Shown piece by piece: positions 14,950 through 25,985 of a DNA stretch of 64,000 nucleotides (positions are counted from its first letter, which is position 1; every line of letters begins with the position of its first letter). The position numbers and the translations under genes are program-made. Under the pieces are notes generated by a model, which saw only the letters and a program-made list of their open reading frames with translations, was not told where the DNA came from and searched no databases. The stretch comes from a phage. The stretch lies in assembly GCA_024614665.1 (NCBI GenBank), contig GCA_024614665.1_4861.1; one strand, 5' to 3'.

Positions 14950-16563
14950 TCATTTCAACAGCGCAGCAGTCGTTCTTTTAATCACGTTGTTAACCGGATT
15001 GATTTTGAAACTGCCGTCTGTTGCAAACCAGTAGTTTTTCGAACTGACCCACTTCCGATTTTCCTCGAGCGCTTCGGTTGACATCGGGCAGTTTGCTGAG
15101 CCGGTGTCACCATCGTAGTCACCACCCAATCCACCTAATCGGGATGGATGTGGTGCCATGGATTCCACAAAGGTTTTCACGGTACGGTCAGGGAAGCTAA
15201 TTGCACCCTTCTCTTTTAACGTGACCCAATCGTCTTCCAGTTCATGCAAATAGAGGGAAGAGGTGGTGGTCTCCAATCTTATGGTCGAGGAGTAAGTCGA
15301 ACCGCGTCCCGTAACCGGATAACGCGTGATGAACGAGAAGTAGTCATTCCAAATATCGTAACCTGACAAATAGAGGAGTTCTGCTAAGCTCAGTCCGCGG
15401 ACAAGCTTACGGTCACGTCCTTCCGGCAGGTCTTCAATATCGTAAAAGATTTTGAAGCTGCGTTTGTCCTGGTAGATTAATGCCACGTAATGGTCCGGAT
15501 CAATCATCAGCGGTTTATGTCGAAGCTCGCGCGCTTCCATTCTGTTGATGAGTGTTTCGATGCCATCGTCGGTAGTGAAAAGGTCATACACCCGCCCGGA
15601 GACTTCCAGGAACTCACGCTTGAGTGTTTTGGTGTTAACGCCGTATAAGTTGCCGTCCCCTGCCCGGATGTTACTGAGGTAACGTTCACGGATGTGGTAT
15701 TGAGCCACAGGCAGTAATGCCTTCAGGGTTTGGTACAAACCGATACGGGTATCCGTTGGACGAATCGCATCTTCGCGACCCATGACCTTGGAACCGGTTG
15801 AGAATGAAGACAGTACGTTACGCGTACCGTTCATTAACTTACGTGACGTCACTTTACGACGTGCAAAACCACCTTTACCGTCTTGGATGTTGAAAAAGTA
15901 CATCCAGATGTCATTAAAGGTTTGTTGGAGCTTCCAGCGAACCGGGTCAGTCAGTTCCGTTCGCGTACTGCGGTCGGGGATTGCACGTGCCAGAGAAATC
16001 AGACGGCGGTAGAGTCCGCCAATCTCTTCTTCTTGGTCGCGGCCATCCTGACGAATGACCAAATCACGTAATCCCGCAGGCAGAACCAGCACATAGCGGC
16101 TGAGACTGACCGGACGGAACTTATTGAAGAAATCGACTGTCTCGTCGCGACGCATTGATTCGTTGCGTCCTGGCGTCAGTTGTTCGTAGTAGCGTAGGAA
16201 GAAGTTGAAGCCGGTGTCTGCACCTTTATCACTGGGCAGAGCCGGCTCGAAATCTTTTTCTTTCTCATTCCAGATAGCGAATCGCTTCCCGGAACAGATT
16301 TCTTCGTACAGCTGTTTCAGCTGGAACAGTGCCAAACAAACGGTCGGCGAAATGATATCCAGTTTGATATCAATGTACGAGAACGTTGAGTCTCGTGCCT
16401 CGCTCCCTGTGAGGCCAAATATTTCAGTTGAATACAGTCCTTCAGGGTGAAAGTTTTTCGTCAGTCCCTGAAAGGTGTCTGTTGTTGTAACTGGTTTTAA
16501 ATGCGACACCAGGGACTTGTTGACGTTTAACAGGTAAAAGTCAACCCAGTTTAGCTTTCTCAC
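14950..16563 (-). CDS. multisubunit RNA polymerase beta'-like subunit, N-terminal fragment type
   Basis: 537 aa. YVLVLPAGLRDLVIRQDG...LYRRLI parallels the bacterial beta' segment LPVLPPDLRPLVPLDGGRF...LYRRVI; MAPHPSRLGG followed by DYDGD parallels NRAPTLHRLG ... NADFDGD (catalytic Mg-binding aspartates). GTG start with AGGAG SD. Confidence 0.6.
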   Translation of the reverse strand: MRKLNWVDFYLLNVNKSLVSHLKPVTTTDTFQGLTKNFHPEGLYSTEIFGLTGSEARDSTFSYIDIKLDIISPTVCLALFQLKQLYEEICSGKRFAIWNEKEKDFEPALPSDKGADTGFNFFLRYYEQLTPGRNESMRRDETVDFFNKFRPVSLSRYVLVLPAGLRDLVIRQDGRDQEEEIGGLYRRLISLARAIPDRSTRTELTDPVRWKLQQTFNDIWMYFFNIQDGKGGFARRKVTSRKLMNGTRNVLSSFSTGSKVMGREDAIRPTDTRIGLYQTLKALLPVAQYHIRERYLSNIRAGDGNLYGVNTKTLKREFLEVSGRVYDLFTTDDGIETLINRMEARELRHKPLMIDPDHYVALIYQDKRSFKIFYDIEDLPEGRDRKLVRGLSLAELLYLSGYDIWNDYFSFITRYPVTGRGSTYSSTIRLETTTSSLYLHELEDDWVTLKEKGAISFPDRTVKTFVESMAPHPSRLGGLGGDYDGDTGSANCPMSTEALEENRKWVSSKNYWFATDGSFKINPVNNVIKRTTAALLK

Positions 16564-16592
16564 TTTTAAGCTCCTGAATTGGAAGAAACATT

Positions 16593-19500
16593 ATGGCAAA
16601 AAGAGGCAAAGACGGTTTCGATGATATCGACTTAGATAGACTCGATGACTGGGATGATTTCGGTGAACCACCCCGTCCCAAAGACGAGAAAAAACGAAGC
16701 CCGATACTTAGTACCCTGAATGTTGCCAGGAAGTCGGCGTTGTCAACTATCTGGCCAGAAGGGAAACGCGACCAAGTTATCCTCAAGGGGATGCCTAAGC
16801 CGGCAGCTGATGCATACGAGGGCTATCAGTCAGCGGCAGCTGCAGCAAAGGATATTTACGCCCATACGAAAGGGGAGCTTGAGAAGACCGAGCGCACGCT
16901 GAAGATGCAAGCGCGCCAACTCGGTCCGACGATGAAGAAATACTTGCCTGATGCGGTTACTAAGCGCATCGACAAGTGGTCAAAATCTGACCAGTTGGAT
17001 TACCAAAATTACGATCCTAATCAGGCGTTGATGGATCGTGAACTGGGCGACGTTTTCTCAGGTGTGCCAAAGGACGCCGAAGAACAACGTCAGCTGCAGG
17101 ACAGCATGGTAGAGGATAAGCTCCGCGACAGCATCAAAGAGATGCGTGCGGATGCAATGCACCAAACCATGATTGGGATGGCGAAAGACATTAACCTGCT
17201 AACCGGGTTAAGCCGCGGGGTATTCTTAAACATCGAGCGTAAGAAACTCGAACTGCAATACCGTACCCTGTTTGCCATCCAAGACATCGTGAAGATGAAG
17301 CAGTCGGAGTTCGATCGTAATACGCCTGCTTTAGAAGCCATCGTGAAGAACACGGCATTGCCGGATTACGCGAAGGAAGATTTCTCAGAAGTCCGTTGGG
17401 CGAACGTTAAACGCCAGGCTGCGGAATGGATGAACCCGTTGCGGTATGCTGACGGGTTTATGGACATGATTCGCGAAAATACCAAGAAGAAAATTTCTGG
17501 TATATTTGGCGAAGGTCGCGGTTTGTTAGAATCTGTTCTCGGCATGGGCGTTGAAGATGATTTCGGCATGAGCGACAGCTCTTCGTTGACTGCTGAACGT
17601 CGCAAAACAAATGCTCGCGATAAAGCAACTGCATGGGGTAGCGGATTCCTTGCGAAGAAACTACTCGGTCCACAAATCGAGAAACTCCAGAAATGGACTC
17701 GCGAGGAGATGGAGAAAAATCCAGAGGTCATGAAACGCCTGCAGAAGGGCGCGTTCACCTTTGGTAATCTTTCCTCCATCTCGAACTCAGCCATCGCAGG
17801 CGAAACGCAAGGACCGTTGGCGGATTTGTTCCGGGTGCTGAATGAACTCGGTATTGTCCAACCGTTAAACCGTGAGAAAGCCTTCCTTGACGAACGTAAT
17901 GGCGAAACGTTAAGCCGTTCGGCGAAATTTGACCGTAAAGCATATCTTAGCCTGGTTGAAGTTATTCCTGCCTGGCTGGCAGAGATTAACAAATCTGTTC
18001 GTCGGGGTTATGGCGAACATGCCGACCTGGAATACGACATCACTAGTCGTGGGTTCGTAGACCGTAAAGTGGTCGGTAACCGCGTACGCAAGGCGGTTGC
18101 AAACGATGAACAACGCCTGCGTCTCCAAAATTCCATTAACAGCACTGTGGATTTTGTTGACCGCGGCAAAACGCTCTCGCAGAAGGATCGACAGCATCTC
18201 GCCGACTATATCGAGTCGCGAGCCTCGCAGGGCCGCGCATTCGACGTAGAAGCGATTCTGAAAGACCCGATGCATCTTCATCGGTATATGCCAGGAAACT
18301 CCGCAGAACGCATTAAGGAAGCCTTACAGGGGCATTCTGATAGCCTAACCGGTGGTAGTAACGAATTAAGTAACGAACTGGCTCGTAAAATCTCCACAGT
18401 ACAATCGTCTATCACCCAGCGTCAGGCAGTTATTGACGAAGCGGTGAACATTTACGGCGAACGTGCGCTGCGTGATGCAGGTATATTCAACTACGACGCA
18501 AAGAGTGACACCTTCGGCGTAGATAAAGACCTCTCCGATCCCTACACCTTGTTTAATGACTTGGCGATGGGTAAGACACGCAGTGGTCGTGCACTGACTC
18601 GTGACCAGGAGATTCAACGTAAACTGCAAAACGGTTCAGCGTTAGGCGACTACTTGCGCCGGATGAACCAAGGGGCAAATGGTGGTGTCGATGACACGTC
18701 GTTGCCGCCGGCTTTACGTGGCGGTGGTAAAGGCCGCGGAATGTCGCCTCGGCAGTTAGCCGCAGTTCTCTACGGTGAAACCTCGACTAACTTTGTTGAA
18801 TTGTTGAGTCAACGTAACCGCGGCGAAGAAGCACCACGGAATAACTTTGACGGCATCATCGAAGCGATTCGGGGTAATAACAACAGTGACACCCTCCAGA
18901 AAATTCTGGAACACGTCAGAAGTATGGACGAAGAAGGGGTTCTCCTGGCTTCGTTAGCAGGGGGTGCTGGTTCTGGTGACGAAGAGATGGGACCACCTCG
19001 TCCTGGTGGTGGTAGCGGTGGCGGTAAACGCCGCCGTATTATCATCGGTGAGGATGGGCTTATTCGTCGTTGGGGCGGTGTGTTGTTCGACACTGCAGCA
19101 GGAATCGGTGGCTTTGCAAAACGTGGTGTTAAAGGTGCCTGGAATAAACTGAATCAGTTCGGTGGCTGGGCACGCGGTAAAATCGCAGGGATGGGCGGCG
19201 GAGAAGGTCCTGGTTTCTTAACCCGGATGCGTGGCCTTATCAGCGGTAGTGTCCGTGGGGGCTTTGAAGCGGTAAGTTCCTTCGGTAAAGGACTACTGGG
19301 TATCCGCGACATTTACGATGACCACGGTAATGTTGTTCTGCAAGGTGCACGTCTGGAAGCTGGAGAATACTACCAGGTCATTGATGGTAAAATGGTTCAG
19401 CTGAAAACGCTGGACGACATCAAACTGGGGAGTGATATTGTTGACTCCGCAGGTAATCTGGTATTAGCAGCCGCTGACTTAGCCGCTGCGGGTAAACTCC

Positions 19501-22500
19501 GCTACTATAAAGGCGGGAAAATCCAAGCACTGACCCAAGGTCTGGCCAGTAAGATTGGCTTAGGCTTTAATAAAGTGGCTAAGCTACCGAAACGGTTCCT
19601 GGATTTCCTGTCGCCAAAAGCGGGCAGCATCGTTGGTAAGATTAAGGACTGGCTGAACGAGATTCCGGAAGGCGAAGAAAAGACACGTCTCCAGAAAGCG
19701 TTCAACCGCGTAACGAGCTTACCGGGTAAAGTGCTCGGTTTTGCGAAACGTGGTGTCGACCGTCTGAAAGACATGATTACCGACAACCCACTGACGCGTT
19801 GGTGGAAAGGCCGTAAAGATGGTGGGGGAGGTGGTTTCAGTCTCTTCTCATCGACCGGCAAGAAAACCAACCACATTCTTATCCGTATCTACAAACTGTT
19901 GAACCAACGTTTACCGGGTGATCCGGAAGACGAAAGTTGGACAGAAGAAATGGAGAAGGGTGTCGGTGGCGGTGGTAGTACGATCGGCCGTGCAGTTCGC
20001 GGGGCGTATAATCGTGCGAAAGCGTCATTGTCTGAACGTTTTGGTGGACGTTGGTCAAGAACAAAAGCGTTCTTTGGTCGTGGACGTGACCGCCTGCGTG
20101 GTTGGTTCAGTGGTTTCCGAGGCCGGGCTGGGGATATGCTCGATGGATATCGTGGAGCACGACACGACATTGCTACACGTTACGAAGTTGAACGTCGGTT
20201 GGCTGGACGTGATGATGATGTTGCTGAGTTTTATCGCAGTCATTTGAACGCGAAAGGTGGCCTTTCTGGCCGTAAAGTCTACGGTGATGCGAAGGAAGAC
20301 CTTGAGACCGCCCGTGATGCAGCAGGGAGAGTTATTAACAAAGGGAAGAATGCTGCCAAGTCTGCAGGTGCAAGATTGTTTGAACGCTTGGACCGAATGA
20401 TTGGCTTGCAAGAGATGTCGTGGTTTAACACCATGCGCGAATCAGTATCCCGTGCAGGTGGTGACGATGGCATTATTCGTACCATGTTTGCGAAGTTCGG
20501 TAAACGTAACAAGCCGCCTGAAGGTGATGAAAAACGCGACTACTTTAACTTCTTCAAACGTTGGCGTGAGAAACGTAAGGAGAAGAAAGAGAAAGCGCAG
20601 GGCTCCAAAGGGAAATCTGGCGGTCTGTGGGATATGGTGAAAGGCTTACCTATCATCGGTCCCATCGTCAGTATCTTGGGAACTGTGGGTAATATACTCG
20701 GTTCTATCACGAAATGGGGTGTGTTAAAACCCGTAGGCCTTTTAGGGAAGGCTGCGTGGAATGTTGGTAAGTTCGCAGTAACCCGCTTGGCGGCACCCGC
20801 GGTGTCCGCTGTGGCAACTGCGGCATCTGCCGTCGTGACCGCGGTGGGTTGGCCGGCAATTCTCATCGGTGGTGCGATCGCCGCGGCAGGTTACGCCGCG
20901 TACAAAATCGCAACGACTACCTATACCCAGTACCTGGATAAGATGCGTTTAGCTCAGTACGGTTTCCGTGATTACGATAAGTGGTCGTCGGACGACGGGG
21001 CGAAAGCGCGTTACTTAGAAGACGCATTGCGTGAGTATGTGTCTTACGCGGAAGATGGCCAAGCCAGTCTCCGTGGGCTAAGTGGAAAAGACGTTCAGAA
21101 GTTAGCTGAAGGATTCGGTATCAACGTTGAGGAAAAAGGCGAGATGTTGGCCTTCCAAGCGTTTATGCTTCAGCGCTTCATTCCGATTTATCTCCGTTGG
21201 ATTACGGCACTGAAATCAATGCCGAACAGTATCCAGTTGGCTGACGTCGGCGATGCGAAGAAAGTATCGAAAGAGGACATGCAGACACTCTTCAACAAAA
21301 TGAAGATGACTAAGGATGCAAAAGCGTTCTCTTCGTTAACTGACCCACGCAAAGTCAACCAAGGTTTCTTCTCGAAAGCTTGGGACGTTGTAACCTTTAC
21401 ACCGAAGGAGTTTTTGAGCGGTGAAGAGGTTATGGAAGTGCAGAATGAAGTCGAGCGTGCGATCAAGTTCAGAATGGACGATAAGAAAGCACGTAAGTAC
21501 GGAATGGCACCGGCCGTGGAGGGGATTAAATCCGCTGGCGTTGATGAAGCTATCAACAAACTCGGACAGCTGGATAACGAACGTAACAAAAATCTGGCGA
21601 AGGTAGAAGGTTGGGAAGACGGAACAGAGCAGGTTCAGATTCAGGTAGACTGGAATGCGGTGCTCGACCAGAAAGACATGAATGCGATGGAGTCGGTACG
21701 TTGGAAGACTTATGGTTTTACCACCATCGATAACGCCACTCGCACCATGATCACGGTATTCGAGAAGAACGTCATTAAGGACATTGACGTGAAAACCGCA
21801 AGCTACAAAGGAGATTGGAAGAAAGCAATCGCCTCGATGGTTCCAGACGCTATCGGTACACCGAAAGAAGATCGTTTGAAACGGTGGTTCTTTGACCGTT
21901 TCTTACCGGTATTCATGACGTATTTGGTTGGGGTGAAGCGTTACCTGCCAACAGCCGATCCGCTGAACTTGAAACTGACCGGCGGCTACCTGTACGAAAT
22001 CAGTCTGATGATGTCAACAGCCTACAGCTTGAAAGGCGGTATAAGACAGTCGGTGTGGGAAGTGAATATCAACCCATTAGGGGGTGAGGCTAACACGAAC
22101 CCATCGTCCATCAAAGCCGAACTGGAAACGCTGAAGCTGCTGTCAAAAGAAGCTGACCTTGCCGTGCGTAACATGATCAAAGCCATTAAAAATAATGGCA
22201 AGCGTGCACGCTGGAAGGATCGTAACAAGAACCGCAGTTCTCTGGAAGTCACCGGTGAAGATGATGAAGACTCGAACATCAGTTCGGGAGATTCTTTGTC
22301 ATCCGACGGTGCTCGCGCCTCAGGTTATATCCCAACGGGTACAAGCGGTGGCGTACCGGGTAACTTAGGCCAAGTCGTCGATGCGGTTGGTGGTGTGCGG
22401 AACTACGCTGCAATGACCACGGGTTCGTCTTCGATTAACCTGAGTGATGTGAAAGACGGTGATTATAAGTCACTGGCTGAAAAATACCCGATAGAAATGT

Positions 22501-23714
22501 TGGGTAGAAAGGGTGCGTTGAACGTTCCAAATATCAAAGCACTGATTACCGATGCAGCGAACATGATGGGCGTGCCACCTGCAGTGGCGTTAGCAATGGC
22601 TAAGGCGGAGTCTGGATTTAACTACACCGCTAAAAACCCGTATGCTTCGGCGTCTGGGTTGTTCCAGTTTGTTAACGGTACGTGGGACGGGATGATGAAG
22701 GGGTATTCGCGGAAGTTCGGTATTCCGCGTGTTAACCAGATGGACCCGTGGGCGAATGCTATATTGGGTGTACAGTTCATTCGTGACAACATCCAACAAG
22801 CACAACGTGACCTGGGTGGTAAAGCACCACCTCCAGCCGTGGCTTATTTGTATCACTTCCTGGGTGCAGGCGGCGGTAAGAAATTCCTGGAAGCATGGAA
22901 GCGTAATCCGAATATGGCGGCATCAAGTGCTCCTGGGATTACATCTGCAATACTGAGAGGGAATGCCAACGTCTTCTACAGCAACGGTCGTATACGTAGC
23001 GTAGACGGGGTTATTCAGGAACTGAACCGCCGCATGGGCGCAATTTCCGCCAACGAAGTCGCTGCCGATCCGAGTAAGACGAAGGATATGGTTGCAGGCT
23101 TGTCGCCTAATTCACCAACCAACCCGGCAGCAGCAATGGGTGCACCGGCCGCTAATGATCCGAGTCTGTCGCCAGCAGATAACCTGCCGGCAGATAATGC
23201 TAATCGTCGTGATGACGCATTGACGCAGAAAGGGGCCATGGCGGCACAAGATGCAATGGCTACCGCCGCAGGTAATGTAGGACCAGCAGCACCTACACCA
23301 ACTACAGGTGGTTCCGGAACATCCGATGCCTCAACAACAGCCGAAACCGTAGCGTCGCAAGCTGCAGCAGAAGGATTGTCTGCAACGGATGTTGCTAAAG
23401 TGAAAGCAGGCGCGGAAGCGCAGGTTAACGCAGCAGCTCGTCCAGTTGCCGCTCCAACTTCTGATGCTACAGCATCGACGCCAACGCTGAATGGTGACCC
23501 GATAGATGTTCAGCAGCTCAAGGTACTGATTCAGTCTCGCGATTACTTGAAAGAGATTCGTGATATTTTGAAATCAAATCCGAGAGCAGCAAACGACACG
23601 CGTGGTGGTAGTATCCAGCAAGCGGCAAATGTGGCTCCTCCGGGCTCAGCTGCACGCAGGCAGGAAATAACCCAACCGACACCGTCGTTAAACGTAAGTC
23701 GGAAAGCAAGCTAA
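16593..23714 (+). CDS. giant virion protein with C-terminal lytic transglycosylase (SLT) domain, tape-measure or cell-puncturing type
   Basis: 2373-aa ORF. SLT signature AKAESGFNY...SASGLFQF...GTWDG near aa 2000; hydrophobic transmembrane-like segment near aa 1350-1440; Gly/Arg-rich repeats (GFAKRGV twice); Ala/Pro/Thr-rich C-terminal region. Confidence 0.75.
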   Translation: MAKRGKDGFDDIDLDRLDDWDDFGEPPRPKDEKKRSPILSTLNVARKSALSTIWPEGKRDQVILKGMPKPAADAYEGYQSAAAAAKDIYAHTKGELEKTERTLKMQARQLGPTMKKYLPDAVTKRIDKWSKSDQLDYQNYDPNQALMDRELGDVFSGVPKDAEEQRQLQDSMVEDKLRDSIKEMRADAMHQTMIGMAKDINLLTGLSRGVFLNIERKKLELQYRTLFAIQDIVKMKQSEFDRNTPALEAIVKNTALPDYAKEDFSEVRWANVKRQAAEWMNPLRYADGFMDMIRENTKKKISGIFGEGRGLLESVLGMGVEDDFGMSDSSSLTAERRKTNARDKATAWGSGFLAKKLLGPQIEKLQKWTREEMEKNPEVMKRLQKGAFTFGNLSSISNSAIAGETQGPLADLFRVLNELGIVQPLNREKAFLDERNGETLSRSAKFDRKAYLSLVEVIPAWLAEINKSVRRGYGEHADLEYDITSRGFVDRKVVGNRVRKAVANDEQRLRLQNSINSTVDFVDRGKTLSQKDRQHLADYIESRASQGRAFDVEAILKDPMHLHRYMPGNSAERIKEALQGHSDSLTGGSNELSNELARKISTVQSSITQRQAVIDEAVNIYGERALRDAGIFNYDAKSDTFGVDKDLSDPYTLFNDLAMGKTRSGRALTRDQEIQRKLQNGSALGDYLRRMNQGANGGVDDTSLPPALRGGGKGRGMSPRQLAAVLYGETSTNFVELLSQRNRGEEAPRNNFDGIIEAIRGNNNSDTLQKILEHVRSMDEEGVLLASLAGGAGSGDEEMGPPRPGGGSGGGKRRRIIIGEDGLIRRWGGVLFDTAAGIGGFAKRGVKGAWNKLNQFGGWARGKIAGMGGGEGPGFLTRMRGLISGSVRGGFEAVSSFGKGLLGIRDIYDDHGNVVLQGARLEAGEYYQVIDGKMVQLKTLDDIKLGSDIVDSAGNLVLAAADLAAAGKLRYYKGGKIQALTQGLASKIGLGFNKVAKLPKRFLDFLSPKAGSIVGKIKDWLNEIPEGEEKTRLQKAFNRVTSLPGKVLGFAKRGVDRLKDMITDNPLTRWWKGRKDGGGGGFSLFSSTGKKTNHILIRIYKLLNQRLPGDPEDESWTEEMEKGVGGGGSTIGRAVRGAYNRAKASLSERFGGRWSRTKAFFGRGRDRLRGWFSGFRGRAGDMLDGYRGARHDIATRYEVERRLAGRDDDVAEFYRSHLNAKGGLSGRKVYGDAKEDLETARDAAGRVINKGKNAAKSAGARLFERLDRMIGLQEMSWFNTMRESVSRAGGDDGIIRTMFAKFGKRNKPPEGDEKRDYFNFFKRWREKRKEKKEKAQGSKGKSGGLWDMVKGLPIIGPIVSILGTVGNILGSITKWGVLKPVGLLGKAAWNVGKFAVTRLAAPAVSAVATAASAVVTAVGWPAILIGGAIAAAGYAAYKIATTTYTQYLDKMRLAQYGFRDYDKWSSDDGAKARYLEDALREYVSYAEDGQASLRGLSGKDVQKLAEGFGINVEEKGEMLAFQAFMLQRFIPIYLRWITALKSMPNSIQLADVGDAKKVSKEDMQTLFNKMKMTKDAKAFSSLTDPRKVNQGFFSKAWDVVTFTPKEFLSGEEVMEVQNEVERAIKFRMDDKKARKYGMAPAVEGIKSAGVDEAINKLGQLDNERNKNLAKVEGWEDGTEQVQIQVDWNAVLDQKDMNAMESVRWKTYGFTTIDNATRTMITVFEKNVIKDIDVKTASYKGDWKKAIASMVPDAIGTPKEDRLKRWFFDRFLPVFMTYLVGVKRYLPTADPLNLKLTGGYLYEISLMMSTAYSLKGGIRQSVWEVNINPLGGEANTNPSSIKAELETLKLLSKEADLAVRNMIKAIKNNGKRARWKDRNKNRSSLEVTGEDDEDSNISSGDSLSSDGARASGYIPTGTSGGVPGNLGQVVDAVGGVRNYAAMTTGSSSINLSDVKDGDYKSLAEKYPIEMLGRKGALNVPNIKALITDAANMMGVPPAVALAMAKAESGFNYTAKNPYASASGLFQFVNGTWDGMMKGYSRKFGIPRVNQMDPWANAILGVQFIRDNIQQAQRDLGGKAPPPAVAYLYHFLGAGGGKKFLEAWKRNPNMAASSAPGITSAILRGNANVFYSNGRIRSVDGVIQELNRRMGAISANEVAADPSKTKDMVAGLSPNSPTNPAAAMGAPAANDPSLSPADNLPADNANRRDDALTQKGAMAAQDAMATAAGNVGPAAPTPTTGGSGTSDASTTAETVASQAAAEGLSATDVAKVKAGAEAQVNAAARPVAAPTSDATASTPTLNGDPIDVQQLKVLIQSRDYLKEIRDILKSNPRAANDTRGGSIQQAANVAPPGSAARRQEITQPTPSLNVSRKAS

Positions 23715-23723
23715 TCGTAGGGG

Positions 23724-25985
23724 GTGGCAACACCCCCTAATCATCTTACAGAGAGGTTTTACGTGGAAGCAAGACAACTAAAAGATTCAGGATGGGTAAC
23801 CGGCCTGTTTGGCGGTACAACCGCACAACGCGATGAGCGTTTCCTGGGTTTGCGTCGTTACTCTAACGCGATGCTCTCGTTTGAAGATACCACGATGGGT
23901 GGTTCGCAAGCGTTAAATGCGCCGCCGCAGTTTACGATGTTTGCTGATCCGAGTTCAACAGGTGCCTTTGCACAACCTGATGCAGGTCGTGGTTCGTACT
24001 CAAAGTACGTTAAAGGTCAAGACCAACGTGGTTCCTATCGTCTAGGGACTTTCTATTACGAAGCTATTAACCAAAACAGTTTTTATCTTCATTGTCGTTT
24101 CGGTAAACCTCGATATATCGGGGTCGCTGCATTCTTCGCGAATATGTACGATTCCAACCTAGCGTATCTGGCACGCACAGGTGATTACCCAGGTATGTTA
24201 CGTGCGATGGGGACGTATGTTGCCGCCGCAGCAATATGGGCCGCAGTAGGTACGGTTGCCTTTGCGGTTATTCTGATTACGCCACGTATGTTGAAGATGG
24301 TGCTGAACAAGCAGACTTCTCGCTACTACTACGTGAAACCGACAATGCACTTGTATCTGCGCGCTGTGCAGAATATGGTCAACACCCAGTTAGTTTATCG
24401 TCGATTAGTACCAACGGGTGTGTTAGGGACTTTCCAGCTTGCTAATGCTGTAGATGGGTCTGAGAAAGGCGGTACTGCTAATAAGTACAACGGCGACCGT
24501 AAAGAGTGGTACTCCATGCTGCCAGAAATCTGGACAGCTGATGGTGAGTTCGATATCTATCGAATGATTAACCGCTACCAAACTTTGGCCAACTACCAGG
24601 CGAAAACCATCGATAAGATTCGTAAAGAGTCGAGTAACGAAGAGGACATGGCTCGCCGTTTGCGAAACTTCTATCTGGAAGCGACGTACTCAACAACCCA
24701 TTTGGAAAAAGCTGCGCAGTACGAGGTTTCTTTACGTAACCTTGAATACGTAGCCAAAGCTGGTAAAGGGTACGATGCTGGTTTTGAAAACGTCGACAAC
24801 AAAGAAGACGAACTGGTAGCAGGGATGAATGGAAGCATTCAGGATGCTCAGTCACAAGGAGGTAAAGCTGAAAACTTCGAAAACGAAGGTGACGTGCAAC
24901 GTAAAGAGCTTGCCGATCGCATGGCGCAGGTTGAAAAGAACCAGGCTCAGGTTGCTAAAAGTCAGACTGAAGCAAACTCGATGGATGAGAACAATCTCGA
25001 CATTGGGAAAATTGAAAACTGGATGGACCAAGGTCAGAAAGAATCTGTCGGTAGCGTCTTTAAAGACTATATCGATATTTTAGATGGCGCTATGGATGGC
25101 CTAACTTCGAACATCGCTTCGGAGATACGTAACGGTTCGCAATGGATTACTTGGCGTGTTGATGGGCGCGATACCGTAGGGCGTTCGTTCTCCAACACCA
25201 CCAAAGAACCTGAAATCTCTGGCACGGTTAACTCCGCCACGCAGAAAGCACGTTCTTTGGAAGTAAACCTCTCCGGTGGTAAGACTGGTTTCGACGCAGT
25301 CGATGGTCTCATTACTGGGCTGAAGTCCGCCTTTACAGGCGCACTCGATTTCTTACATTTATCAGGGATTATGTCACTGTACAACTCGTCGGTGATTGAC
25401 TTCCCGGAAGTGTGGGACTCCTCAGACACCTCAGGTGACGATATCTCGCTAAGTATTCCCCTTCGCTGTTGGTCGGGTAATGACTTAGATGTGTTTCAGG
25501 ATCTGATTGTCCCGTTGTCGTTCTGGTTAGCGGCAGTTTGTCCGTTAGCAACCGGTAAACAATCGTTTACACACCCGTTCTATCTGGAGTGCTATTCTCG
25601 CGGTCGTTATTCCATGCGTAATGCCATGGTAACTAACCTGAGTCTCCAGTTCGGTACAGGTGGTTTAGGTTGGCGTGCTGACGGTCTGCCGTTGTCGTGT
25701 GATATACAGGTAACTATTCGTGACCTGTCGCGTGTTATGTACATGCCGATTGTAACTGATATTGGTGTGTTTGATGATGATAACAAGTTCAGTGAATTTA
25801 TGTCTGTGTTGGGCGCTGCCACACTTTACGAGCGTACCAACGGCATCGCGCAGGCTAAAATCAATGCGTCTATCTGGGCGCAGAACTGGGCAAGTGCTTG
25901 GTCGCAGGGTAGCATCGTCAACGCCGCCTTAGATATCATACCAGCCCGACAAATCGCGAACATTTTCCTACCACAAGCGCGTTAA
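23724..25985 (+). CDS. virion structural protein (hypothetical)
   Basis: Long ORF directly after the giant gene; more likely start is GTG 23763 with GAGAGG SD. Contains one hydrophobic helix. Confidence 0.5.
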   Translation: MATPPNHLTERFYVEARQLKDSGWVTGLFGGTTAQRDERFLGLRRYSNAMLSFEDTTMGGSQALNAPPQFTMFADPSSTGAFAQPDAGRGSYSKYVKGQDQRGSYRLGTFYYEAINQNSFYLHCRFGKPRYIGVAAFFANMYDSNLAYLARTGDYPGMLRAMGTYVAAAAIWAAVGTVAFAVILITPRMLKMVLNKQTSRYYYVKPTMHLYLRAVQNMVNTQLVYRRLVPTGVLGTFQLANAVDGSEKGGTANKYNGDRKEWYSMLPEIWTADGEFDIYRMINRYQTLANYQAKTIDKIRKESSNEEDMARRLRNFYLEATYSTTHLEKAAQYEVSLRNLEYVAKAGKGYDAGFENVDNKEDELVAGMNGSIQDAQSQGGKAENFENEGDVQRKELADRMAQVEKNQAQVAKSQTEANSMDENNLDIGKIENWMDQGQKESVGSVFKDYIDILDGAMDGLTSNIASEIRNGSQWITWRVDGRDTVGRSFSNTTKEPEISGTVNSATQKARSLEVNLSGGKTGFDAVDGLITGLKSAFTGALDFLHLSGIMSLYNSSVIDFPEVWDSSDTSGDDISLSIPLRCWSGNDLDVFQDLIVPLSFWLAAVCPLATGKQSFTHPFYLECYSRGRYSMRNAMVTNLSLQFGTGGLGWRADGLPLSCDIQVTIRDLSRVMYMPIVTDIGVFDDDNKFSEFMSVLGAATLYERTNGIAQAKINASIWAQNWASAWSQGSIVNAALDIIPARQIANIFLPQAR

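Follow-up and report, generated by a model that had tools for sequence, protein, structure and literature searches.

The present work concerns a window of 64,000 nucleotides of phage DNA (NCBI GenBank assembly GCA_024614665.1, contig GCA_024614665.1_4861.1), the whole of which is referred to below as the window, and one very large gene within it. On the plus strand, positions 16593..23714 form a single 7.1-kb open reading frame (ORF) for 2373 amino acids (aa), as the original prediction, made from the sequence alone, had stated; it starts with ATG behind a Shine-Dalgarno-like GGAAGA sequence and stops with TAA at 23712-23714. The gene is the orthologue of SPN3US gp239 and phiKZ gp181, and its product very probably serves as the tail tape measure in a Salmonella jumbo myophage of the SPN3US-like group (Seoulvirus). 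The encoded protein is a near-identical copy of one which has already been described; the finding is correct and already known, and the gene itself adds nothing new to a protein which proteomics and genetics had identified in SPN3US and phiKZ. The added value of the analysis is a finer domain map.

The relationship to SPN3US is very close. In megablast comparisons, the genome of this phage matches the gene at 98.2% nucleotide identity over 100% of its length, and about 30 other Seoulvirus genomes match it at 96-98%, while the best-matching proteins share 99.0-99.5% identity with the 2373-aa product. Gene, neighbors and orientation are the same in SPN3US, yet its gp239 has 2372 aa, without the extra Gly of the GGG run at aa 805, and differs at 11 further positions; no functional difference is expected. 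At the codon level, these 11 non-synonymous changes and the one additional Gly codon are accompanied by 110 synonymous changes, and this preponderance indicates that the frame is under purifying selection. The ORF is intact in 25 phage records at a coverage of at least 80%. Since it is uninterrupted in these records, changes mostly by synonymous substitution and corresponds to an SPN3US protein detected by mass spectrometry, the ORF is not a product of chance. In SEGD1 (KU726251), two coding sequences lie under the match, and in SPFM8 (LR535906) and SPFM20 (LR535917) the tblastn matches are fragmentary; the split or partial gene in these genomes probably reflects errors of assembly or annotation rather than biology.

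The protein also matches PHROG 3201, the group of SPN3US gp239 and phiKZ gp181, with 2463 bits, and its similarity to the group is collinear over the full length. In SPN3US, gp239 (the number given in the Thomas laboratory; locus tag ACQ60_gp027, SPN3US_0239) is flanked by the divergently oriented virion RNA polymerase beta' genes (gp240/241) on one side and by gp238/gp237 on the other, and the order in the window is identical. The neighborhood is conserved beyond this genus: in phiKZ a divergent virion RNA polymerase beta' gene lies upstream of gp181 and the baseplate gene gp182, the counterpart of gp238, lies downstream, and Goslar shows the same gene order around a 2252-aa homologue annotated as a chitinase. 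BLASTP aligned the protein with phiKZ gp181, which is annotated as a 'tail-associated endolysin', in three collinear segments, i.e., aa 12-267 (E 1e-12), from aa 438 onward (E 1e-4) and aa 1383-2349 (E 3e-30). In both proteins, N-terminal helices bearing an NTxxPD motif are followed by a Gly/Ala-rich block of uncharged residues, then by a pair of RxxxYG modules, the SLT domain and a tail of low complexity. In spite of this common plan, their identity is about 23%, gp181 is 136 aa shorter (2237 aa), and its Gly/Ala-rich block is of lower hydrophobicity, all Kyte-Doolittle windows staying below 1.4.

A search of 5.8 billion proteins retrieved 93 homologues at 22-99% identity, and conservation was assessed from a fast-mode MAFFT alignment of the homologues. 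For the 110 cluster representatives with a length of 2000 aa or more, the median was 2296 aa (interquartile range 2228-2422, coefficient of variation 8.5%), such that the length of the family is tightly held while identity drops to about 25%.

The location of the protein in the particle is known from the SPN3US literature. The original prediction of a virion protein agrees with published mass spectrometry, in which the 259-kDa gp239 was found in virions and was almost missing from tailless heads, and its authors name it the tail tape measure protein. It yielded 521, 595 and 594 peptide-spectrum matches in wild-type virions compared to 0, 4 and 4 in the tailless heads of a tube amber mutant, corresponding to a normalized tailless/wild-type ratio of 0.0066 and an assignment to 'Tail' (PMC10052503 Table S2). 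The same table lists gp238 and gp237 as tail proteins and gp240/241 as head proteins. In phiKZ, gp181 is essential according to transposon insertion sequencing (TnSeq).

The features mapped within the gene are as follows; AF2 denotes AlphaFold2 models and pLDDT their predicted local distance difference test score.

16593..23714, plus strand: coding sequence of the probable tail tape measure protein / virion-associated lytic transglycosylase, 2373 aa, orthologue of SPN3US gp239 and phiKZ gp181
16701..17852, plus strand: N-terminal long alpha-helices, aa 37-420, candidate ruler segment (AF2 model; collinear with phiKZ gp181 aa 26-297, E 1e-12)
17346..17375, plus strand: motif K252-N-T-A-L-P-D-Y-A-K261 (alignment)
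17910..18662, plus strand: compact helical domain, aa 440-690 (AF2 model, pLDDT 78-92; P459 invariant)
18690..20612, plus strand: Gly/Arg/Lys-rich segment of variable length, aa 700-1340 (composition, alignment, pLDDT)
19110-19130 and 19737-19757, plus strand: GFAKRGV, exactly two copies, at aa 840 and aa 1049 (exact match)
19299-19517, plus strand: aa 903-975, two 'D-I-x-D-x-x-G-N-x-V-L ... G-x-Y-Y' strand-turn (hairpin-like) motifs, at aa 906 and 948 (pattern match)
20625..20912, plus strand: hydrophobic Gly/Ala-rich membrane-type block, aa 1345-1440 (Kyte-Doolittle)
20922..21248, plus strand: module copy 1, aa 1444-1552, with R1452...Y1456-G1457...E1476...R1528-F-x-P1531 (hhalign, conservation, pLDDT)
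21675..21971, plus strand: module copy 2, aa 1695-1793, with R1703...Y1707-G1708...E1724...R1769-F-x-P1772 (hhalign, conservation, pLDDT)
22506..23057, plus strand: family-1 lytic transglycosylase (SLT/GH23-type) domain, aa 1972-2155, with the codon of the catalytic Glu2006 at 22608-22610
23058..23522, plus strand: Ala/Pro/Thr/Ser-rich linker, aa 2156-2310, poorly conserved, identity about 0.22 (composition, alignment)
23523..23711, plus strand: C-terminal segment, aa 2311-2373; L2319 and R2370 conserved (alignment)

The enzyme domain is the best characterized part of the protein. A transglycosylase signature had been predicted near residue 2000, and ESGFN is indeed found at aa 2006 and SASGLFQF at aa 2019. 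The hidden Markov model search that had been proposed as a check gave the Pfam SLT family (PF01464) at aa 1984-2072 (E 2.1e-9), with 37.4 bits against a curated cut-off of 21.3. In a phmmer search of the PDB, the only protein matched was phiKZ gp144 (3BKH; 9XPS chain S; E 2e-15), a match which the family profile raised to E 5.6e-59; the full-length family profile found lysin domains and no other solved chain in the PDB. E2006-S2007 aligns with E115-S of gp144, where Glu115 is what we take to be the catalytic Glu (Fokine et al. 2008). The catalytic Glu within an E-S motif, followed by a G-L-(M/F)-Q motif, is the arrangement of family-1 transglycosylases, and E2006, S2007, G2022, Q2025 and F2026 are each conserved in at least 95% of 86 homologues (95% for E2006 and 100% for G2022). 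The AF2 model of aa 1441-2160, built from 46 sequences, has a mean pLDDT of 78.8, rising to about 90 in the enzyme domain, and the model together with the fold search reveals a lysozyme-like fold; the transglycosylase fold, on the absence of which the original prediction was to be given up, is thus seen in the predicted structure. Cleavage of peptidoglycan by aa 1972-2155 is predicted from this fold and the catalytic Glu. The context of the domain differs from that of gp144 (PDB 3BKH): gp144 has 260 aa, is both an endolysin and a 'wedge' protein of the neck and carries a peptidoglycan-binding domain at its N-terminus, whereas in the present protein of 2373 aa the domain is embedded close to the C-terminal end.

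The nature of the enzyme varies within the family. Some relatives code for a GH19 domain (PF00182) in place of SLT, or add an M23 or VanY domain to it (the variants being P0041, P0043, P0044, P0093, P0083 and P0086 among the homologues), and the Goslar homologue (L003 7824-14582) has a chitinase-type domain instead of SLT. The enzyme-swapped relatives retain the remaining architecture and the overall length, and such exchange is typical behavior of virion-associated lysin modules. Beyond the enzyme, the Ala/Pro/Thr-rich tail described in the original prediction is recognizable in its composition, with 19-29% Ala, 6-10% Pro and 14-21% Ser+Thr in the bins covering aa 2101-2300. By analogy with other tape measures, the C-terminal segment that follows (aa 2311-2373) is a candidate docking end at the baseplate hub.

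A long hydrophobic stretch had been noted ahead of the transglycosylase signature. It is present at aa 1345-1440, yet some 540 residues separate it from the SLT domain downstream, which it does not directly precede. Kyte-Doolittle windows of 19 residues reach at least 1.5 at aa 1348-1373 and 1399-1440, and aa 1399-1437 comprise 39 consecutive uncharged residues; judged by its sequence, the block could form two to three membrane-spanning helices. Most of the 93 homologues have a comparable hydrophobic block, located at 55-62% of their length. Between this block and the enzyme domain, a module of about 100 aa is present in tandem, its two copies sharing an R...YG...E...RFxP signature. The sub-alignments of copy 1 and copy 2 matched one another in hhalign with a probability of 98.6% (E 1.3e-15), and AF2 models both copies with a pLDDT of about 90 and with helices and a hairpin in the same order. 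Both are also found in phiKZ gp181 (aa 1370 and 1608) and in the Goslar homologue (aa 1356 and 1600). When aa 1441-1900 alone were compared with 1.84 billion cluster representatives, 317 matches were obtained, and the module proved to be restricted to this giant protein family. It corresponds to no Pfam family, and no solved relative was detected by the fold search or by the family profile against the PDB.

The N-terminal half is modeled less firmly, with a mean pLDDT of 60 over aa 1-1200. Its AF2 helices include aa 37-53, 69-117, 162-207, 214-253, 282-316 and 334-375, in addition to many others. Within this otherwise divergent helical region, K252, N253, L256, P257 and K261 of the KNTALPDYAK motif are invariant in 46 sequences down to 17% identity, with counterparts NTGIPD at aa 283 of phiKZ gp181 and NTALPD at aa 291 of the Goslar homologue. 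A contact site for the tube, for the terminator or for an assembly factor is one possible role of the motif.

The following Gly/Arg/Lys-rich segment (aa 700-1340) exhibits low alignment occupancy (0.58-0.87), low identity and a pLDDT mostly below 50. The Gly/Arg-rich repeats of the original prediction refer to this part of the protein, and the segments named there do exist: GGGxG occurs at aa 710, 805, 868 and 1077 and GFAKRGV at the two positions listed above, and the bin of aa 801-900 consists of 30% Gly and 17% Arg+Lys. A true repeat array is, however, ruled out, and what is left is low complexity. BLASTP self-comparison of the 2373-aa protein returned the self-match alone, the two best Smith-Waterman tile scores, 58 and 54, were at the edge of what shuffled sequences gave (maximum 56), and Tandem Repeats Finder (TRF) reported no relevant DNA repeat, just a trivial 9-nt array. 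The exact GFAKRGV heptad was found in no homologue below 99% identity and is restricted to the 99%-identity cluster. As to the D-I-x-D-x-x-G-N-x-V-L motif in the same segment, strict pattern matching finds 0-3 copies per homologue, and the majority consensus of the family alignment holds further copies which are absent from the protein of the window.

What is new in this map is the tandem module of about 100 aa, the KNTALPDYAK motif, the swaps of the enzyme domain and the tight conservation of length at about 0.75 Å of tail per residue. For mutagenesis in the SPN3US genetic system, the map provides targets in KNTALPDYAK, in the membrane block, in both RxxxYG...RFxP modules and in the exchangeable lysin.

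These components can be placed in a possible sequence of events. The 259-kDa protein is a component of the tail and not of the head, as shown for the SPN3US orthologue. A few copies, probably a trimer, would be anchored by their C-terminal ends to the baseplate hub and to the spacer, the product of the next gene, if assembly resembles that of other tape measures. The tail tube would polymerize around the protein, which would then lie inside the tube lumen; in a lumen of 162 nm x 4-6.8 nm, a trimer fills 16-46% of the volume and six copies fill 32-92%. Upon contraction of the sheath, the spike would depart and the protein would be expelled C-terminus first, bringing the enzyme to the peptidoglycan early. 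There, the lytic transglycosylase domain with Glu2006 would cleave the glycan strands locally, for which the fold and the Glu are seen here and the activity is known from a fragment of phiKZ gp181. Together with the duplicated module, the conserved hydrophobic block (aa 1345-1440) may enter the inner membrane and help form a conduit for DNA and ejected proteins. A bolder proposal, speculative and rather improbable, is that the membrane block and the duplicated module turn the tape measure into the conduit which phiKZ-like phages use at the inner membrane, perhaps even shaping the membrane-bound vesicle of early phage infection (EPI) that receives the DNA. If this were true, the protein would be a multifunctional injection machine and not a passive ruler.

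The designation as a tape measure finds support in general architecture. A long, mainly alpha-helical protein encoded beside tail and baseplate genes is what would be expected, and both aspects are seen here, in the AF2 helices of aa 37-420 and in the next two genes, which encode tail proteins. Of its segments, the helical part at the N-terminus is the most likely to determine length. The combination with other activities has precedents, as T5 Pb2, the tape measure proteins of TP901-1 and phiIPLA35, lambda gpH and T4 gp29 are tape measures with lysin and/or membrane-active parts, and resemble the present protein as long helical proteins of the tail lumen with hydrophobic segments, several of them with a C-terminal muralytic domain that acts on ejection. 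The differences are considerable, however: no sequence similarity to these proteins was detected outside the enzyme, the protein here is about 2-4 times longer, it spans half the tail length per residue, and no frameshifted chaperone gene adjoins it.

Several observations weigh against a ruler. Classical tape measures correspond to about 1.5 Å of tail per residue. The phiKZ tube has 43 rings of 37.73 Å for a protein of 2237 aa, i.e., 0.73 Å per aa, and the Goslar tube 46 rings of 39.16 Å for 2252 aa, i.e., 0.80 Å per aa, so that a length proportional to the tail at the classical value is not found. Between the two phages the tube differs by 11% and the protein by less than 1%, and the distance from the N-terminus to the first module (1370 aa in phiKZ compared to 1356 aa in Goslar) does not scale with the tube either, in what is a test of two phages. 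At 1.5 Å per residue, 2373 aa in one helix would extend over 356 nm, compared to reported Seoulvirus tails of 160-200 nm; the protein has about twice the length required by a simple helical ruler for such a tail, and only part of it could be one. The 202 nm obtained for aa 1-1345 at the same rise is a numerical coincidence and not evidence. Pfam and NCBIfam gave SLT-type matches only and no tape-measure family, and the pair of tail-assembly-chaperone genes is absent upstream, where the divergent RNA polymerase gene begins 29 bp away; the missing family match and chaperone pair carry little weight, since T4-type myophages also do without this arrangement. The phiKZ structural atlas (2026) and the Goslar structure preprint do not mention the tape measure, gp181 is not modeled in the atlas, and the protein was resolved in neither of the two published jumbo-phage virion structures. 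The ruler and membrane-channel roles are ones that we infer by analogy.

The same data bear on the alternatives. The protein might reside in the tail lumen and be ejected as a lysin and membrane channel without measuring anything, the tail length being set otherwise and the conserved protein length reflecting domain content. Each residue accounts for 0.73-0.80 Å of tube, which is half the classical value, and length does not scale between phiKZ and Goslar, as would fit such a role; the large parts of the protein which form compact domains instead of an extended helix and its membership in no tape-measure sequence family would fit it as well. It is nonetheless unlikely, because no other candidate ruler is known in these phages, relatives that have diverged strongly keep a similar length (coefficient of variation 8.5%), the N-terminal region with its long helices looks ruler-like, and the SPN3US and phiKZ literature treats the protein as the tape measure. 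A head-internal ejection protein of the T7 gp16 type, which carries an SLT domain and serves in a trans-envelope channel, is scarcely credible: the similarity is limited to the enzyme domain of about 170 aa, and the proteomics of tailless particles contradicts it, the SPN3US orthologue being essentially absent from DNA-filled heads that have no tail.

The original prediction had left the choice between a tape measure and a cell-wall-puncturing ejection protein. The name used in the SPN3US literature and the transglycosylase fold support a tape measure or an ejected protein that attacks the cell wall, but the puncturing spike itself is made of other proteins. That phiKZ gp181 belongs to a needle beneath the baseplate was first proposed for this phage, and in those passages of reviews that cite Briers et al. 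2008 a gp181 fragment is credited with strong muralytic activity and an assumed place in a needle-like puncturing device; such passages list gp181 as a 'needle-like cell-puncturing device' after Briers 2008 and Fokine 2008, and the lysozyme of T4 gp5 offers an analogy to its lysin domain. In the phiKZ atlas, by which the proposal has been superseded, the spike, the spike tip and the hub are assigned to gp164, gp163.1 and gp101, gp182 forms the ring below the tube initiator, and gp181 is not placed among the spike proteins. With models that contain neither an OB-fold nor a beta-helix, and with a mass of 259 kDa which far exceeds that of spike proteins, a needle is very improbable. Least of all, together with the T7 gp16-type reading, can a tail fiber be believed, even though SPN3US and many relatives carry the annotation 'tail fiber protein', as do most GenBank records and PHROG 3201. 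The label is unsupported by the domain content and is rejected here: the protein lacks a fiber-type domain, consists mainly of helices and contains a membrane-type block as well as an enzyme that cleaves peptidoglycan, the fiber/baseplate paralogues of SPN3US are gp168-170, and the label looks like a propagated annotation.

Upstream of the gene, the divergent virion RNA polymerase beta' gene starts on the minus strand with GTG 16563, 29 bp from the tape measure ATG at 16593, and with start codons this close both promoters must overlap or lie in coding sequence. A scan of 16300-24000 for sigma-70 promoters and intrinsic terminators gave fewer matches than shuffled sequences and none above chance, and was uninformative; these phages use their own RNA polymerases. 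Downstream, two features follow the stop codon.

23718..23739, plus strand: perfect 9-bp GC-rich hairpin with a GCAA tetraloop, 3 nt past the stop codon (RNAfold, -18.1 kcal/mol)
23763..25985, plus strand: downstream gene, orthologous to gp238 of SPN3US and to gp182 of phiKZ, which forms the baseplate 'spacer' ring beneath the tube initiator (BLASTP to gp182, E 1e-40)

The hairpin is identical in SPN3US and is followed by no U-tract; it may be an RNA 3'-end or a stability element for the polymerase of the phage itself. The ORF list places the start of the downstream gene at GTG 23724, which falls within the hairpin, while the SPN3US annotation uses GTG 23763, preceded by a GAGAGG Shine-Dalgarno sequence, and the latter is the likelier start.

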